64,000 bases of DNA, taken from NCBI GenBank assembly GCA_951406725.2, contig OX597823.1, positions 65,720,001 to 65,784,000 of the forward strand, read 5' to 3'. Within the stretch, counting starts at the first letter, position 1. Every line of letters starts with the position of its first letter. Shown in pieces: positions 5,382 through 61,812 of the stretch. The notes beneath the pieces were generated by a model. The model ran no database searches, had not been told where the DNA came from, and saw only the letters and a program-made list of their open reading frames with translations. The position numbers and the translations under genes are program-made. This stretch comes from Octopus vulgaris. Lineage: Eukaryota.

Positions 5382-5449
<68 letters not shown>

Positions 5450-5583
5450 AAGTAGATAAATGAATTATCTTATGACGGATAATTCAAATGATAACCGATA
5501 CCTGGGTAGCAAAAATCACAACAGAAAAAGCACGGTTGAGGTTACGAGCATGGGGCCTAAAATCCGTGCCTTAGTGCGGAAAT

Positions 5584-6342
5584 TTGAAGTTTTATATATT
5601 AGCAACCTCCATACCAACAGATATTAGCAACCTCCATACCAACATTGGAGTTAGTAATAGTAATAAGGATAAGAGCAATGATCTCGTCATTAACGTAGGG
5701 GGAGTAAGTAATGGTAATAAGGATAAGAGCACTGATCTAGTCATTAATGTAGGGAGTCCCAACAATAATATTAGCAGCGGTTTTAACAACAGTAGTATTA
5801 CGGACATTATCAATCACAGCATTCACAGTAACAGGGAATATGCAGGTGATAATGGGGTGAATAATATCGAATCCAGCGGTAGTTTTTACAATCATCATAG
5901 TAATAAGAACGCTGTATTAATATCGGAAACCAATCCCAATAGATTAAGGTTCTTATCTAGTAACTCCAAGATTAGAAACGCCATTTACCAGTGCAGAGTT
6001 TATACTGATTCAGATATCTACATATATATCGGAGCTTCATCATCGAAATTGGCTGTTAGAATATCGAATAATTTTTCCACGTTCCGTGATAAGGAAAAGC
6101 AACACGCTACGGGGCTAAGCAAATTAGTCTGGCGTTTGAGGAACGCGAATTCAACTTTTAGACTGGAATGGTCAATTTTATCGGTGTCTTTACCGTTTGA
6201 TAAGGGAAAAAAAATCTGTGCTCTTTGTAACTCGGAACTCCTTCATATTCTGTTCGCCCGAGGGCACCTTGTTAACTCGATTGTGCAAAATACTTTCAGA
6301 TGCCCTCACTGGAAACGGCATACATTTCTCTCATACCAATGA
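5584..6342 (+). CDS. GIY-YIG endonuclease of Penelope-like type with Asn/Ser-rich N-terminal region; true start uncertain
   Basis: AIYQCRV...YIG...LAVR...TGLSKLVWRL...LEWSIL...CALCNSE...LVN...CPH matches the PLE GIY-YIG motif order. Frame open for 759 bp. The listed TTG start lies at the inversion junction. Confidence 0.8.
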   Translation: MKFYILATSIPTDISNLHTNIGVSNSNKDKSNDLVINVGGVSNGNKDKSTDLVINVGSPNNNISSGFNNSSITDIINHSIHSNREYAGDNGVNNIESSGSFYNHHSNKNAVLISETNPNRLRFLSSNSKIRNAIYQCRVYTDSDIYIYIGASSSKLAVRISNNFSTFRDKEKQHATGLSKLVWRLRNANSTFRLEWSILSVSLPFDKGKKICALCNSELLHILFARGHLVNSIVQNTFRCPHWKRHTFLSYQ

Positions 6343-6935
6343 AGTCTAATATAGTTAACCCCTTGATTTCCTAAGAAAATTGAAAAAAATTTGAATTAAA
6401 TTTGTAAGGGGATATCCCTTCCCTGTTAGTATAAGAACTGCTAGTTGTCTAGAACTGCTGACATCCCTGACAGCAGCACTGTATCCTGCCATGACCATTG
6501 TGGACACCCCCTCTCTCTATCAAGTGGTTACAGACGAACACACAGACACAGTCTTTTCTGTTGCTTGACCATTAATACCTGCTATATCCCTCTCTCTTGC
6601 TGCTTTCGAAACACACTGCCACACATACATAGACGAACACACACATACATGAAATCAATTTCTCACACTCAAACACTCTAGCACTCATTCTTAAAATAAT
6701 TCAAATATTAACACCAGTCATACAGAATACATTCACACTCTTTGATTTTCCTGTACTCCCCTTCTGCTAACCGGATTTTGACCTTGAATTATCTCAACGG
6801 ACCTTCTCGTCTGCTTTCACCCAGCCTGGTGTCAACGCATATAGATAGACAGTTTGTGCCATTTATTCCATGGGCTCCTCGTGAGCGTTTGTCGAAAAGT
6901 TTGCTGTGCATTTTGTTGGAGAATTAAGTTCCTGG

Positions 6936-7021
6936 ATTTTCCTGAAGAGAAGGCTGCAAAATGGACTCCTTATTCAATCCGAATTAGGGACTTTGCAGCC
7001 TTTGAAACATATGTAGAAAAT
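6936..7021 (+). ncRNA. Type I hammerhead ribozyme
   Basis: ATTTTC CTGAAGA GAAGGCTGCAAA..TTTGCAGCCTTT GAA ACATATGT A GAAAAT: stem I 6 bp, intact core, 12 bp stem II, palindromic stem III, GUA site at 7013-7015. Confidence 0.85.
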
Positions 7022-7109
7022 AATAAAAAGGAATTTTGTTAAATCTTCGTTCAGCTCCATTTCTTCCTACACTAAATATATATATATATATATATATATA
7101 TTATTTAAT

Positions 7110-26636: not shown

Positions 26637-27224
26637 GGCGGCGAGCTGGCAGAAACGTTAGCACACCGGGCGAAATGCGTAGCCGTATTTCGTCTGCCGT
26701 TACGTTCTGAGTTGAAATTCCGCCGAGGTCGACTATGCCTTTCATCCTTTCCGGGTCGATAAATTAAGTATCAGTTACGCACTGGGGTCGATGTAATCGA
26801 CTTAATCTGTTTGTCTGTCCTTGTTTGTCCTCTCTGTGTTTAGCTCCTTGTGGGTAGTAAAGAAATAGGTATTTCGTCCGCCGCTACGTTGTGAGTTCAA
26901 ATTCCGCCGAGGTTGACTTTGCCTTTCATCCTTTCGGGGTCGATAAATTAAGTATCAGTTACGCACTGGGGTCGATGTAATCGACTTAATCCGTTTGTCT
27001 GTCCGTGTTTGTCCTCTCTGTGTTTAGCTCCTTGAGGGTAGTAAAGAAATAGGTATTTCGTCCGTCGCTACATTGTGAGTTCAAATTCCGCCGAGGTTGA
27101 CTTTGCCTTTCATCCTTTCGGGGTCGATAAATTAAGTACCAGTTACGCACTGGGATCGATAATCCGTTTGTCTCTCCTTGTTTATCCCCTCTATGCTTAG
27201 CTCCTTGTGGGTAATAAAGAAACA
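26637..27224 (+). mobile_element. Trimeric SINE family B with 17 bp TSD
   Basis: One full unit plus two head-less ~183 bp repeats; GATATATGTTTTAATAG at 26618-26634 and 27225-27241. Confidence 0.9.
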
Positions 27225-27889
27225 GATATATGTTTTAATAGTTACGTATCTGCGTGATCGAGAATGCATTTAGACGATGGATGCTCTGTAAACTCTTTTG
27301 CTACTAAATTATTATTCTTTAGCATATGGTCTTCGTAAATATTTCTTGTTTTCCAGGACATTAAATGACGATGTCATTCTGTTTAAAATGTATTAAGTTC
27401 TACTGCGGATTTGAATTGTTATAGAAACACAAGCATTTGGTTACTCAGCGAATTTAAGAAATTTATCGGTACGCGTTAGATTGTATTCAACAACTTGTCA
27501 CTTGAAAAGCGTAGCTATATGAAATATGTACATACAGCACACCGCTCTATGTGGTAGAAATAATGTATAACTGGGCCGTGTTGTGTTAAGATTTAGTTAA
27601 TGCACGAAATTCAAAGAATTGAATTGGAAATTAATGCATCAACAAAATTTAATCCAAAAATATTAAGGTAGCATACGTGAATGTATTATTAAGCCATTCT
27701 ATACATAGCCATGATGTTTCTCATTCACTGGAACACATAAATGAATTCCTTCTACTAGAGTTGCTACAGTCTCATCGTTTACATATGTGTAAAATTAGGC
27801 ACAAGAAACTAATAAATCCCTCATAAGTATATGTATGTCTATGTGTGTATTTATGCACATGTGTGTGTATAAATGTATCTACAAGTGCT

Positions 27890-31387: not shown

Positions 31388-31772
31388 CTTACATAGCCCT
31401 TCAATTGTTCAAGGACATTTGGAGGCTAATATTTATTAATCTTTACCTGTAGTTCTCCCTTTTTCCACTTCACAATCCAGATTTTGCCTTCACATATATT
31501 GAAGGGAAATGTAGTTTTCTGTGCAACACTATTTATTATATAATATCAACAGCTCTATATTAATTTCACACTAGCATTCTTACATAGCCCTTCAATTGTT
31601 CAAGGACATTTGGAGGCTAATATTTATTAATCTTTACCTGTAGTTCTCCCTTTTTCCACTTCACAATCCAGATTTTGCCTTCACATATATTGAAGGGAAA
31701 TGTAGTTTTCTGTGCAGCACTATTTATTATATAATATCAACAGCTCAATATTAATTTCACACTAGCATTCTT
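31388..31772. repeat. Near-perfect 191 bp tandem duplication
   Basis: CTTACATAGCCC.. at 31388 and 31579; only about 2 differences seen. Confidence 0.95.
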
Positions 31773-40223: not shown

Positions 40224-41050
40224 CACGTTTACCGTTTCATTCCGTTCAAGCATTTCGTCATGGATAATCCCTTCCCCGTCCCACCTACGCACGACATCGT
40301 TTTACTCGATGAAAATCTTGTTTCGTGCGCGGTGTCACTTGTTTACCGGGACTAAGCCATTCCTTACGCTGTTTCATATTGATGTACAGGCACCATTTTT
40401 GTCGCCAGTAACGATCTAGTAAAGAAATCGATACTTGTGTCCATGAGTTGAGCGGTGATGAGCAAGCAAACCAGCAGAGATTGCGGCTCGTTGATTTTTG
40501 TTGTCGTTACTTAAAGCATACGGAACACATGCTCCATACTTCTGAACCTTTCCCATCGAGTGAAGATGTTTCTCTATAGCAGTGTGGGAGCATGCCATTT
40601 TCTCTGCTAGTTCCCTTGTTTGACGAGAATTTTCGTGCAAAAGTTGGTTTAATCGCTCTTTATCAAATTCAACTGGACGGCCAGTACGAGGTGCGTCTTT
40701 GAGGTCAACATTTCCATTTTCGAACTTGGCATACCAATCACGAGTGGTTCTTTCAGTTATGGCACTGTCTCCATACACAGCACAAATATCGAGAGCAGCT
40801 TTTGCGGCCTTAGAACCTTGATTAAAAACAAAAAGAAGGAGGTGTCGAAAATGTTCGTTCTTATTAACTTGACATTCCATTTTAATGATCTGAAAATAAA
40901 CAAAAATTTAGTAGAAAAGAAAACAAACAAAATAGATTCCATAATGATTCAAAAATAGAATTCTCGAACAAAATAGATTCCAAAATTTAAAAACGCAATA
41001 AATTCCAAAATTTAAAGAAAAATGGCGGAAACTTAGTTGCCAACCCAATA
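40224..41050 (-). mobile_element. Mariner 5' part (HTH domain and first catalytic motif), decayed
   Basis: ORF 40416-40880 (HFRHLLLF..ICAVYGD..WYAKF..DAPRTGRP) then IVTGD; TIR TATTGGGTTGGCAACTAAG. Confidence 0.85.
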
Positions 41051-50645: not shown

Positions 50646-51076
50646 GTATGTATATACATACACAGACTGGACAAACTAATGGAAACACTAGCATCATGGC
50701 ATCATAATTTTTGAATATCTATAAAAATGTTAAAAGCTTGTTTATTTTGTGTTTTGATTTATTATTAGTGTTGCTTGATACATTTTGTTAAAATTGCCAT
50801 CTCTTTTTTTCAGATATCATCATATAAAGGTAATTAAAATTAATTCAATGACGATGGGTTTGCACCTAGAACTTTCCCCTCCGAGGCACAGATCCACTGA
50901 TGTTTATGGAAGACCAGCAGTCGCCCATGCATATCAGCTTCCCCTCTCCACGCGACCAGCGTTTTCCAAGGGAAAGGCAAAAATCAATAGGGCTTGGCAT
51001 TAGTGACGACGTATCTCATTTCTACAACTGAGTGAACTGGAGTAATGTGAAATGCATATATATATGTATATATATA

Positions 51077-51997
51077 CCGAACTCAACTCCAGTCTGATCT
51101 ATATGCTGTGAGTCAATGGGCAGACAGAAACAAAATGCAACTGAATGAGGGAAAATTTGAGCTGATGCATTTTGGAAGAAATTCCTCACTAAAACAACCA
51201 TACTCTCTTCCTTCAGGGGAACCGCTCACAGCCTCTAACAATATCAGAGACCTGGGTGTAATTGTTGATTACGCTCTCAGTTGGAGTGCACACATCAACA
51301 AGAAGGTCGATATAGCTCGTAAGATGAGTTCCTGGATCTTAAGGACTTTCTGGTCCAGAGAACAAGTTGTCATCACACCACTTTTCTCCTCCTTTGTACG
51401 GCCACACCTTGAATACTGCTGCCCACTGTGGTCTCCCCATACAAGACAAAACATCTCCAGGATTGAGTCACCCCAGAGGGCACTCACTAAACGAATTGAA
51501 GGCATGGCTGCTCTCGATTATTGGGATCGCCTTAAAGCCTTGAAACTTTACTCCCTCCAGCGTCGCCGTGAGCGGTACATCATTTGTACGATGTGGAGAA
51601 TATACCGCCAACTTTGCCCAAACGACCTTAACATTAGCTGCAAGGTTCATCCAAGACTCGGACCACGGGCCATACGTCCCCTGCCCAATTCAAGATCACA
51701 ACATACATGTACACTGCAACATAATTTCTTTTCCTCAACAGGCCCTGCCCTATTTAACATTGTCCCGAGAGAGATCAAAGAGGAAAAGGATCCCATCAAT
51801 TTTAAACTGAGTCTGGATAGATTCCTTCAAAAAGTACCAGATAAGCCACCCATAATTGGATACACCTCACCCAACAAGAACTCACTACTTGAACAAAACT
51901 TGACTTAAACAGGATTCGAATAATCCTATCAGGTAGTGCTATTAAGTTAGATATGGCCTGGATCAATCTTTGGTCGAAACATATCTAAGTTATCTAA

Positions 51998-53540: not shown

Positions 53541-53754
53541 CACCACTAATATAACTAATGATAGTCTATACACAAACATATAATTATGGACATCACTTGG
53601 AATTATGGACATCACTTGGAACCAATATGCATAAACGGACCTGTAGGTAAGCACACGAAAGTATTACTGCATCAATAATGATCTATGCTGTGTTGTTTCA
53701 TTAGATTTAATTATTCCAGCATCCAAAACTGATGCGCTACCAGCATGTATTATT

Positions 53755-54880
53755 AATGACTTCTTGGAAATATAGGAGTCAGGCAGTAGTGGTTAACGGA
53801 GCCACCTCTATGAACACACAAATAGTGAGCGGTGTTCCACAGGGCACTGTCTTGGGACCACTGCTTTTTATAGTGGCCCTCTCAGATATGCACTCAAATG
53901 CCCGGATAGCCACTCTGGCCAGCTATGCAGACGATACGAAAGTCTTGCAGAAAATACAGAACCCCAGCGATGTTGCACACCTGCAGCAGGAGTTGGACTC
54001 AATCTACAGTGGGCTAAGGATAATAATATGCAGTTTAATGCTGAAAAATTCCAGGCCCTGCGCTACCAGCATCCAAAACTGAATATTAAACTTACAGGAT
54101 ACACCGGTCCACAGGGAATTTCAATCCCAGAGCCTAATTCTGTGAGGGACCTGGGTATCGACATGAGTGATGATACCTTTTTCCAAGTGCACATTACCAG
54201 GATGGCGACAAAGTGAAGACGACTGGCTGGGTGGATCCTAAGAACATTCAGAACCAGAGATAAGGAAACCATGGTGGTCCTCTGGCGGACATTACTGCTC
54301 ACAGCTATGGTCCCCCTACAGTGTAAAATTAACAGCGGACTTTGAGGCAATCCAGAGAAGATTCAGAAAGAATATCGTCTCTTTGCAACACCTCAGCTAC
54401 TGGGAAAGGTTGAAACAGCTGGGACTCTACTCCCTGGAGAGAAGACGGGAGAGGCATGCAGTAATATATGTTTGGAAGATCCTGGAAGGAATTGTGCCAA
54501 ATTTTGGCATTGTAAGCTACACCAATGCCAGAACGGGACTGCATAGTGCCAACGATTCCAGCAATGCCATCACGCTTCAGGACCAGCTTCTGCAACAGCC
54601 TGGGTTTCAAGGGCCCACAGCTTTATAATATTCTTCCAAAGAGTCTGAGGAACTTGCACAAAGTAGATATAGCGGTTTTTAAATCAAAGGTGGACATCTT
54701 CCTGTCGAGAGTCCCAGATGAACCTACCTCACGGCAAGAGGTGCAAATGAGAGTAGCTATATCAAACTCCATTCTTCACCAAGTGCCACACATTAGAGGA
54801 GGTTCTTCACAATAACAGTGTAGCACAAAACGGCGGTGCATCAGCATGGCCGCAGCTCTGAGCTGAAACTAGAGAAAAAC
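53755..54880 (+). mobile_element. CR1-clade LINE, RT 3' half, frameshifted
   Basis: SGVPQGTVLGPLLF..YADDTK..VRDLGI..YWERLKQLGLYSLERRRER. Confidence 0.9.
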
Positions 54881-57435: not shown

Positions 57436-59203
57436 AAGTATCACTAGTTCAAAATGGCATCTTTCAATTCACTCTATGACTGCATAATAATTTTCGATGA
57501 CGGTATGTCTTTCTGTCATTGATCATTATATATTTTTTATATATTTTCCCCATGAATATTGTCGGATATTCCTGTCACTGCATCAGCTCATCATCTTTGA
57601 CAATTAAAGAGGATGTAAGAGTTATGTTAGGTCTGAAAATATAAAGTTCTTCACAAGTAATTCCTAACATCTAAACCATTTCGTATACGCTCTCAAGCAA
57701 TTATTCAGCTATTAGCTACTAATTTTCTTGTCAAATTTACTTCCCTTAAATAGTATGAGAAACCTTAATTCAAGTAAAATTGTGACGTTACTTTTCTTAA
57801 GCAGTAATAGTTTCACGCAACAAGAATGTAAAGAGAAGCTATCAACACCTTATGAATGATGATTTTATATTTTCTTTAGATCTTTCGAAGTATTAATCAG
57901 AACAACTTGTCAAATTTCATTTTAGAGAGTTGTAACAAGCGTCTGATTAGGTTTTTTCTTGTCATTCAAAAATGCCGATACGAATAAGCGGAGAAGAATT
58001 GGATTAAGTACTTGCCACAGGAATTGTCTTTCTCGGTCTTCATATATATATATGTATGTATATGTGTATGTATGTATGTATATATGTACATATATATATA
58101 TATATATGTATATATATTTATATATATATATATACATATATATACATACATACATATACACACTGGCACACACATACACGCATACACACATATATATTGT
58201 TTCGAATGACATACATTCAGTGAAAATATTGGAAATATATTTCATAGAATTATAGCATCTAAATAGAATAATTACTTACTTTTCTTAAAAAAATAGACTC
58301 ATCATGCATTAATTGAGACACTTTTTTCCGGCAAAATAGAACGGTAAATTATTCAATTATTGAAATATATAAAAAATTATGAAATGCAATCTCAAACCAA
58401 TTGAATGTATTCATTACGGTTTTAATAGGAGTTGAATATCAACGAAAAGATAGACAGATAGCTACACAGGCAGATAAATAGACAGACACAAAGACAGACA
58501 GGCGATAGCTAGATAGATTGATAGATAGATGGATAGATAGATGGATTGACAAACTGAATGGTAGTGAGAAGGAAAGAGAAATAATTAGATAGATTCAGCG
58601 AAGCTGAAAATATTTAACTGCTGCCAAAATTGTAAAATAACAACGTAGTCCAAAAAAGGTGGCAACTTTCAATTATGTAATTTTAGATAATTCATATGGA
58701 TAAAAATATTGGCTTCGAAAATTAGTAAAATTCTTTTGTCGCCGTACAAGGTGCAATTTCCAATTAGAGAAAAGAAAAAGTGGCATGCTGGGGTGTTTCA
58801 CAAAGTAAGAAAACGTCAAAGTTAGTTATATCTGACACAAATCGGAGCGATGTTACATACACACAGAGAGAGGCATATACACAGACAGACAGACACACAC
58901 ACACACACACACACACATTAAGACACACTCACACACACTAATTCTATGCAGAGAAGAAGAGGTGTCATATCACTGAATTTCAAGTTGCCAAACATTACCT
59001 CGTGGAACCTGATGTTTGTGACAGAGGGAATGATTTCCATGATAATGTTTTCCTTGTCTGTCAATCGTTTTGATTTTTATGACCAAGATATATTCACTAC
59101 CTACATATGAATATAACTCTTTACTCTTTACTAAGAACTCTTTACTCGAAAAGTTAAACTGTCCAAAGCATGGCTGACATCAAACATCATTAAATGTCTA
59201 AGG

Positions 59204-59247
<44 letters not shown>

Positions 59248-59470
59248 TCAATATAGGGTGGCAAAAAAAATTTTGTAGAATTCTTTTGCCACCAGCGGCC
59301 TAGTGGGAAAAAATTAAATAGTCATAGACCATTTTTAAGTTCAACATCAACAATCAAGGAACGGCCATAATAGGCCATTCACCCACTAGAAATAACAGCC
59401 AAAGCTTCAACCGCAAATAAAAATTAATTCCGTAAACCAGGAGAAAATTTAAAAAAACATTTACCCTGTA

Positions 59471-59577
59471 ATTTCTTATACGATATACCGTTTCATCTGC
59501 TGATTAATGGTAAACTAACCTGATTAAATTAAATCAAGCCAATCTTCCACAGGCCCTCAGATTCTTCAGTAAGAAAT
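59471..59577 (-). ncRNA. Type I hammerhead ribozyme (inverted copy)
   Basis: Reverse complement of 60035-60141. Confidence 0.88.
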
Positions 59578-60034
59578 AGCCCAAGTCGGAACAGATATTT
59601 TCACGAGGCATTTCCGACCTTGCCAAGTTTATATCTGACCTAAAATTTTTCCAGGGTAAATGTTTTTTAAATTTTCTCCTGGTTTACGGAATTAATTTTT
59701 ATTTGCGGTTGAAGCTTTGGCTGTTATTTCTAGTGGGTGAATGGCCTATTATGGCCGTTCCTTGATTGTTGATGTTGAACTTAAAAATGGTCTATGACTA
59801 TTTAATTTTTTCCCACTAGGCCGCTGGTGGCAAAAGAATTCTACAAAATTTTTTTTGCCACCCTATATTGATTAATTATGAATTTTCTGGTTAATTCCGT
59901 AATGGAATCGACGGCTTATATTTATTTGCTGCCGATAAATTTGGCGCGAGTGCGACGATTTGAAAATTTTAGGTCAGATATAAACTTGGCAAGGTCGGAA
60001 ATGCCTCGTGAAAATATCTGTTCCGACTTGGGCT

Positions 60035-60141
60035 ATTTCTTACTGAAGAATCTGAGGGCCTGTGGAAGATTGGCTTGATTTAATTTAATCAGGTTAGTTT
60101 ACCATTAATCAGCAGATGAAACGGTATATCGTATAAGAAAT
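60035..60141 (+). ncRNA. Type I hammerhead ribozyme with long stem II
   Basis: ATTTCTTA CTGAAGA ATCTG..CAGAT GAA ACG GTATAT CGT A TAAGAAAT: 8 bp stem I, GUA site at 60131-60133. Confidence 0.88.
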
Positions 60142-60321
60142 TACAGGGTAAATGTTTTTTAAATTTTCTCCTGGTTTACGGAATTAATTTTTATTTGCGG
60201 TTGAAGCTTTGGCTGTTATTTCTAGTGGGTGAATGGCCTATTATGGCCGTTCCTTGATTGTTGATATATATATATATATATATACAGACGTGTATGTGTA
60301 TGTATGTGTCTGCGCACTCGC

Positions 60322-60366
<45 letters not shown>

Positions 60367-61508: not shown

Positions 61509-61812
61509 TATTTGAGTAATTGAATGAATTATCTTATTAAGGATAATTCGAAAGATAAACGATACCTGGGTAGCAAATTCACATCAGGAAGAACACGGTT
61601 GAAGCTACGTCGCTAGGGCATAGACTACGTGTCTTCCTGCGGAAATTTGTATGTTTATTTTAAAATTATAAGTATATGAAAGAATGGAGTTGAACGACTA
61701 GTTAACAAATATCCTTTATTCTCGACATATGTTTCGAAGGCTGCATATTCCTAATTCCGAAGGAATAAGGAGTACTAGTCGTTCATCTCCATTCTTTCAT
61801 ATACTTATAATA
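61505..61812 (-). mobile_element. Truncated pLTR of the PLE family at 5443-7077
   Basis: Homologous to 5445-5590 and 6966-7075; HHR 3' half GCAGCCTTC GAA ACATATGT C GAGAAT; short terminal inversion. Confidence 0.75.

Follow-up and report, generated by a model that had tools for sequence, protein, structure and literature searches.

The window analysed here, a stretch of 64,000 nt of Octopus vulgaris DNA, holds at 59208-60284 one insertion of a dispersed, non-coding 492-nt family carrying a hammerhead ribozyme (HHR), i.e. an animal non-LTR retrozyme. We are highly confident of the core of our reading, namely that this is a retrozyme inserted by the double priming known from Penelope-like elements (PLEs). 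The explanation that best covers the data as a whole is that the retrozyme RNA is copied in trans by a PLE RT/GIY-YIG protein, with double priming at a cut (TA)n target and with circles among the templates; we give this full reading a probability of about 0.6.

Structure of the insertion

The locus is composed of two head-to-head arms between (TA)n tracts, with the following features (window positions):

59208-59242, no strand: left (TA)n target tract (TRF)
59240-59649, minus: arm B, unit positions 312 to 492 and on to 228; its outer end is priming site B (59240-59243)
59471-59577, minus: type I hammerhead of arm B, CUGAAGA at 59569, predicted cut after 59479
59650-59651, no strand: head-to-head junction, 2 filler bases
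59652-60265, plus: arm A, 1.25 units; its outer end is priming site A (unit position 122)
59652-60143, plus: 492-nt reference unit (unit position = window position - 59651)
59773-59879, plus: tail of ~105 nt between sites A and B, from the end positions in 88 loci
59826-59862, plus: conserved hairpin in the tail, retained in a sister family
60035-60141, plus: type I hammerhead of arm A, helix III self-complementary, predicted cut after GUA 60133
60068-60099, plus: G-U-rich 13-bp helix in the extended stem II
60266-60284, no strand: right (TA)n target tract (sequence)

The initial annotation of this DNA had described a 492-nt monomer present in about 1.25 units at 59652-60265, with one HHR per unit and no meaningful ORF, and all of this is borne out. 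The period is exactly 492, with 122 identical nucleotides at 59652-59773 and 60144-60265, and the plus arm is made up of one 492-nt unit and these further 122 nt, the minus arm of unit positions 312-492 followed by 1-228. The core and stems found are those of one HHR per unit; the GC content is 0.36, and the longest frame within the element is 68 aa. A tRNA search of the window element found none, and the RT and GIY-YIG ORF of an autonomous PLE is absent from the 492-nt element. The near-identity of the inverted copy had been taken to indicate a young insertion, which agrees with our comparison of the arms, the sole difference being one extra T in the minus arm (59240-59649). What had been missed is that one insertion event produced both arms, the inverted copy at 59240-59649 being the second, and that the two outer ends of the locus are two different fixed priming sites, following the "tail" rule of PLEs. 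Arm A starts 10 nt past an HHR cut position and crosses one intact cut site. Since the locus has one HHR per strand, the release of a monomer (or circle) from it is impossible.

The hammerhead ribozyme

In arm A, the HHR consists of stem I (60035-42/60134-41), CUGAAGA at 60043, stem II (60050-54/60113-17, a register taken directly from the sequence) and a 3' core with GAAA at 60118-21 and the GUA cut site at 60131-33; the sequence of the arm B ribozyme is identical. All forms of the family have a self-complementary helix III, as is expected of HHRs that act as dimers (PMC7229834), and 160 cut regions matched by a regular expression fall into 5 near-identical forms. Compensatory changes are seen in stems I-III. 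Among 13 diverged relatives (<95% identity), two-sided changes occur at 4 of 6 pairs in stem I and 4 of 4 in stem II, and 94.5% of cells pair, scores of a kind that relatedness inflates.

The extension of stem II contains a helix of 13 bp at 60068-80/60087-99 with 5 G-U pairs and zero mismatches, just as initially annotated; one of its pairs is broken in 8 of the 13 aligned relatives, and the variation is mostly one-sided. The accompanying description of stem II as unusually long stands as far as its presence is concerned but not as a mark of uniqueness, because a long stem II likewise occurs in five Hydra-like PLE families of this genome. We also considered whether the circle as a whole folds in a strand-specific way; this is unsupported, the antisense strand (z -5.2) being similarly non-random to the sense strand (z -4.6). 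In Rfam nothing reached the gathering score, and the five matches at E<=10 are due to chance and include no hammerhead family; the stem II region of ~68 nt probably defeats the models. In a 488-nt sister family and in PLE families E and N, the core of the HHR reads CCGANGA in place of CUGANGA.

Size and age of the family

A genome-wide search with the monomer, proposed earlier as a check, revealed dispersed tandem copies: in the 2.8 Gb searched (227 contigs) the 492-nt unit gave 898 candidates, and the 40 loci scored include full-length matches at 98-100% identity and arrays of up to 9 units that are 98-100% identical. A 25-mer common to the family and its sister family has 4,273 exact matches in the genome (control 0), the first 100 of which represent 36 loci across 69 Mb; scaling from these, we estimate the family at ~1,500 loci, a figure that is also a lower bound. 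The family is dispersed across most large contigs. Its youngest copies show 0.22% divergence outside haplotype markers, and loci picked by position are 72-100% identical to the 492-nt unit. The sister family has a non-coding unit of 488 nt, ~70% identical, with 2,317 candidates, in which the HHR, hairpin and two end sites are conserved. There are also sister retrozyme families of greater age, at 70-82% identity (L131-L160, L273, L332).

In the openly searchable literature, we found no description of the 492-nt family or of the strict rule for its ends that is set out below. We regard the family as new, but of a known kind (retrozyme) and with known PLE hallmarks, its value being an unusually clean mechanistic record.

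Two-armed insertions nearly always have one end of each kind

A total of 88 loci were analysed: 40 selected by length, 13 further ones (leaving out duplicates, loci already in the length-selected set and two incomplete loci) and 35 picked by position. In 68 of the 88, two arms are inserted head-to-head inside (TA)n; (TA)n flanks nearly all ends of the family, and a poly(A) tail is absent. For the first 53 loci, outer ends were classified as site A (unit positions 113-130) or site B (220-233), and the 44 head-to-head loci among them comprise 41 A+B, one AA, one BB and one unclassifiable case. Among the 35 position-picked loci, 24 are head-to-head, 23 of them A+B (including two scored by eye, whose B ends lie at 235 and 237) and one broken. 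One A end is hence paired with one B end in 64 of 66 classifiable two-armed loci (p 3e-17 against free choice), and in these 64 the ~105-nt tail is present at one end only.

The inner junctions of the arms, in turn, fall anywhere in the unit. At 44 head-to-head junctions examined by BLAST, 27 show an overlap of 1-15 nt (inflated by alignment extension), 15 contain filler and 2 are blunt. The filler in some loci is reiterated local sequence (L090-L092), and we infer that such fillers arose by templated end joining.

Probable templates: cut RNA, multimers and possibly circles

The initial annotation proposed reverse transcription past the unit junction, and this is supported: of 97 arms, 75 run across one or more HHR cut sites, 47 across at least two and one across nine, meaning that some loci, the window locus not among them, carry two or more consecutive HHRs. 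The internal cut sites are clean, with one indel per 233 crossings; template jumping between monomers is therefore unsupported, and the long arms derive from uncut or precisely ligated RNA. The inner ends accumulate at the cut. In the interval from -10 to +12, 18 of 97 are found against 4.5 expected, among them those of 11 of the 75 arms that had already crossed an intact site (p 7e-4). Among the position-picked loci, 6 of 59 inner ends fall in the narrow window (p 0.057, not significant) and 12 of 59 in the interval from 0 to +30 (p 3e-4); three windows were tried in each locus set. The ends at the cut are a direct sign of linear templates made by the HHR, whose 5' ends very likely exist in vivo.

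The arrays contain two kinds of signal. On the one hand, 19 rare variants occur in every unit of their locus, which requires the multiplication of one monomer, and many haplotypes have uniform arrays; in L264 there is no substitution among 7 units, and the nearest sampled locus lies at a distance of 3.2. On the other hand, in only 15 of 23 cases do the units of a locus lie as close to each other as to the nearest other locus, or closer, and units are mixed within arrays (L033, L055, L069) or repeated as a 3-unit block (L275), so that array structure cannot come wholly from one monomer template. The multi-unit block repeats and mosaic unit of L275, L055 and L033 could reflect duplication or conversion after insertion, or multimeric circles. 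On the strength of the genomic copies, we consider it somewhat probable that circles are used as templates.

The same PLE double priming might instead act on solely linear templates, i.e. HHR-cut monomers and part-cut multimers of parent arrays, long arrays being kept up by tandem duplication and conversion after insertion and no circles being involved. We regard this as unlikely, though it draws on real observations: inner ends lie at the cut even in arms that have crossed an intact site, many short loci end both arms at the cut, and block repeats and mosaics do occur. However, a circle re-opened by its own HHR would likewise yield ends at the cut, and linear templates do not readily explain the many distinct haplotypes that each have homogeneous multi-unit arrays, such as L264. 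Internal priming moreover shortens the arrays in every round, so something must restore their length. Retrozymes of coral, mussel and axolotl do accumulate as circles (PMC7229834). A point against our main reading is that 8 of 9 Xenopus retrozymes showed no cleavage in vitro (10.64898/2026.07.22.740005).

Penelope-like elements in the same genome

Mobilisation in trans by a PLE, another earlier proposal, is supported by the (TA)n flanks, the tandem arms and the A+B ends, all as in PLEs. A GIY-YIG fragment at window 5575-6342 led to intact PLE ORFs elsewhere in the genome, and protein searches revealed at least eight PLE families: the Hydra-like A, B, C, D, E, G and H, assigned by the motifs of PMC8557442 (section 11) without a tree, and Neptune N. 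The seven Hydra-like families have DKT, CxxC/CxH and mostly CxCx5C motifs, the last being absent from A and E. A rule of one short and one long end holds in 19 of 19 tail-out pairs in (TA)n from six Hydra-like families with intact ORFs (one duplicate locus counted once; family D gave no pair), and the tails of the Hydra-like families measure ~70-155 nt. The 105-nt tail and long stem II of the retrozyme fit this group and not Neptune, and the trans-acting partner is probably a PLE of the Hydra clade. Neptune N is a poor fit as partner, with a 32-nt tail and a minimal HHR; its pair counts were left out as unreliable owing to an internal TA run.

Several PLE copies were also observed. Window 5436-7101 is a truncated two-armed insertion of Hydra-like family A that includes the GIY-YIG frame 5575-6342, with an HHR cut near 7015 and an end 60 nt later in (TA)n, and a further fragment lies near 61523-61772. 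The Neptune PLE is very young (L231-L260, L296-L300), with 109 of 109 scored matches at >=99% protein identity, as is Hydra-like family H (L319-L360), which has a 727-aa frame, at least ~60 near-identical copies and a tail of ~70 nt. Another HHR-bearing element, not assigned to a family, at L213:2550(-) and L222:1499(+), ends in (TA)n ~108 nt past its cut.

Alignment of the 492-nt unit to the eight PLE families, a list that is not exhaustive, revealed no shared sequence, and homology to PLEs was likewise found neither by blastn nor with an nhmmer profile of 47 retrozyme tails nor in shuffled pairwise alignments, the best of which (fam2 vs E) reached p 0.01 among 12 tests. Retrozyme matches within the PLE loci L166 and L332 were rejected as homology, since they are insertions of their own, nested in the PLE or next to it, and a short motif common to the unit and the A/E tails, spotted by eye, is not significant.

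It is against this background that a second explanation has to be weighed, in which the unit is no more than an orphaned pLTR (terminal repeat) belonging to an autonomous PLE outside the families found. Every structural hallmark matches PLE ends, and the list of PLE families might lack the relevant one; yet the arms span up to 9 complete units without coding sequence, PLE protein matches flank 9 of 88 loci with none contiguous with an arm, and the sister family at ~70% identity is non-coding as well. We consider this explanation very improbable.

Both arms share a haplotype

The same haplotype is present in both arms of 32 of 33 testable loci, compared to a mean of 0.26 and a maximum of 0.55 in 10,000 permutations; 13 rare variants are found in both arms and 70 in one arm. 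In the position-picked set, the arm lengths are correlated (rho 0.78, n=23) and an arm tends to cross the cut where its partner does (odds ratio 30, p 0.003), whereas the length-selected set shows no correlation of arm lengths (rho -0.02, n=27, three complex loci left out).

A third explanation is that the inversion is a fold-back, be it a cDNA hairpin, a later inverted duplication or a sequencing artefact, the last of which had been raised as a possible objection from the start. Junctions in L083, L280 and L291 are indeed near mirror images, and no listed contig bridges the inverted junction of the window locus. However, the outer ends differ by rule, neither window arm is a subset of the other, and many other head-to-head joints are bridged in contigs of the DNA run X1, which may be the source of the assembly. 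In 13 of 23 loci arm A reaches a more 5' position than arm B, and the arms of L289 and L293 are without any common sequence; this excludes simple fold-back, and we see little more than a trace of probability in this class of explanation. Twin priming in the style of L1, on strictly non-overlapping parts, was also rejected; it fits few loci (L261, L268, L289, L293), and many have overlapping arms. Spread as a satellite by unequal exchange or by a LINE, to which tandem units and local duplications might point, can be dismissed given the dispersal over most large contigs, the fixed internal 3' ends, the lack of poly(A) and the (TA)n flanks, and is excluded by the end rule.

A model for retrozyme insertion

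Returning to a retrozyme copied in trans by a PLE protein, we suggest that tandem loci would be transcribed and that the HHR would cut the RNA in vivo into monomers and part-cut multimers, a share of which might be ligated to circles. A PLE protein dimer would bind the tail between A and B and nick both strands of (TA)n, priming one cDNA from A and one from B on RNA of one source, either a single molecule or a paired dimer. Each RT would then reach an HHR-made 5' end or roll past intact or ligated sites, and the two cDNA ends would be joined via microhomology or templated filler, producing the inverted structure with its tail outward. Some long arrays may grow later through duplication or conversion.

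A more specific version, which we put forward tentatively, is that the PLE dimer primes both (TA)n strands on one and the same circular ribozyme RNA, each at its assigned site, and continues around the circle from either start, the ribozyme setting the cDNA stops by re-opening the circle. If true, the ~1,500 insertions would be a genomic record of asymmetric twin rolling-circle reverse transcription, and would also document that the hammerhead is active in vivo during the PLE cycle.

Comparison with known systems

The family resembles the animal non-LTR retrozymes described previously (Cervera & de la Pena 2020, PMC7229834; Li, Clavereau & Pollet 2026, 10.64898/2026.07.22.740005) in its tandem units, which are non-coding, low in GC and equipped with a single type I HHR, in the self-complementary helix III, in the range from monomers to multimers and in the presence of PLEs in the same genome. 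Its unit of 492 nt exceeds the 150-450 bp of the retrozymes in PMC7229834, and up to 972 is reported in 10.64898/2026.07.22.740005. Insertions with two inverted arms, a fixed pair of ends and (TA)n targets find no mention in the main texts of these two papers. Of the Xenopus retrozyme families, 24 of 57 are homologous to annotated TEs, nearly all of them PLEs (10.64898/2026.07.22.740005), whereas no such homology was found for the octopus unit. Circles are reported for animal retrozymes (PMC7229834), while the octopus family is known here from assembled sequence.

With Hydra-clade PLEs (Craig et al. 2021, PMC8557442), of which an octopus family is listed in the supplement of that paper, the element shares insertion into (TA)n, a canonical HHR, an inverted 5'-truncated arm and a one-sided tail, but it has no ORF, and sequence homology was not found. 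PLE tails are given there as 30-40 nt, against ~105 nt in the element and ~70-155 nt in the Hydra-like families of this genome. The Chlamys MRC1-type elements (PMC8557442) are similar in being non-autonomous passengers of PLEs with multicopy head-to-tail insertions; unlike in the octopus family, a canonical HHR is missing from them, and their 3' end is similar to that of the autonomous partner.

The closest biochemical parallel comes from the Anolis PLE Poseidon (Frangieh et al. 2024, PMC11167929), where two internal RT starts downstream of the HHR define the tail, and where both target strands are cut and extended in vitro and a dimer is predicted. In that assay both strands use both sites, whereas octopus insertions have one A and one B each; HHR cutting is dispensable for Poseidon and no RNA-seq ends are reported at the cut (PMC11167929), whereas inner ends pile up there in the octopus family.

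PLE mobilisation of animal retrozymes has so far been argued from co-occurrence and pLTR similarity, and here it is the insertion footprint that shows it. The family also bears on the puzzle of how the inverted arms and one-sided tail of PLEs originate, with strictly one A, one B and one RNA source, and, through the cDNA ends piling up at the cut site, on whether the hammerhead cuts in vivo. As one genome holds both a 492-nt RNA and several young PLEs with intact ORFs, these points are testable in an existing in vitro assay.

Sequencing runs and other features of the window

In assembled contigs, the 492-nt unit is present in 20 of 24 listed runs, 12 of them guessed to be RNA and coming from three studies; runs of DNA or of unknown type that carry the labels of two other organisms contain 0.68-0.83 of the unit words, and three RNA-guessed runs of study P10 contain none. 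Contig starts at 60133 (one each in X6 and X16) were rejected as RNA ends, as contigs cannot show ends and the site is spanned in X2 and X4 contigs, and a dip in the depth of X8 over the cut was not counted as evidence of cleavage, since it comes from the same single study as X6 and X16. Over window 59180-60330, A>G and T>C account for 51 of the 67 differences seen in X4 (p 2e-4 against 13 of 35 in the DNA run X1), 22 of 38 in X2 (p 0.1) and 7 of 17 in X6, where there is no excess. The inverted arms may form double-stranded RNA that undergoes A-to-I editing, a possible explanation for this excess over the unmatched DNA run.

Elsewhere in the window, a fragment of a mariner/Mos1-type transposase (PF17906) lies at 40416-40907 on the minus strand. 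Frames at 51051-51908 and 53711-54628 look by eye like C-terminal parts of LINE RTs, the first without a Pfam match, and tandem repeats are present at 26685-27229 (184 nt x3) and 31388-31772 (191 nt x2).
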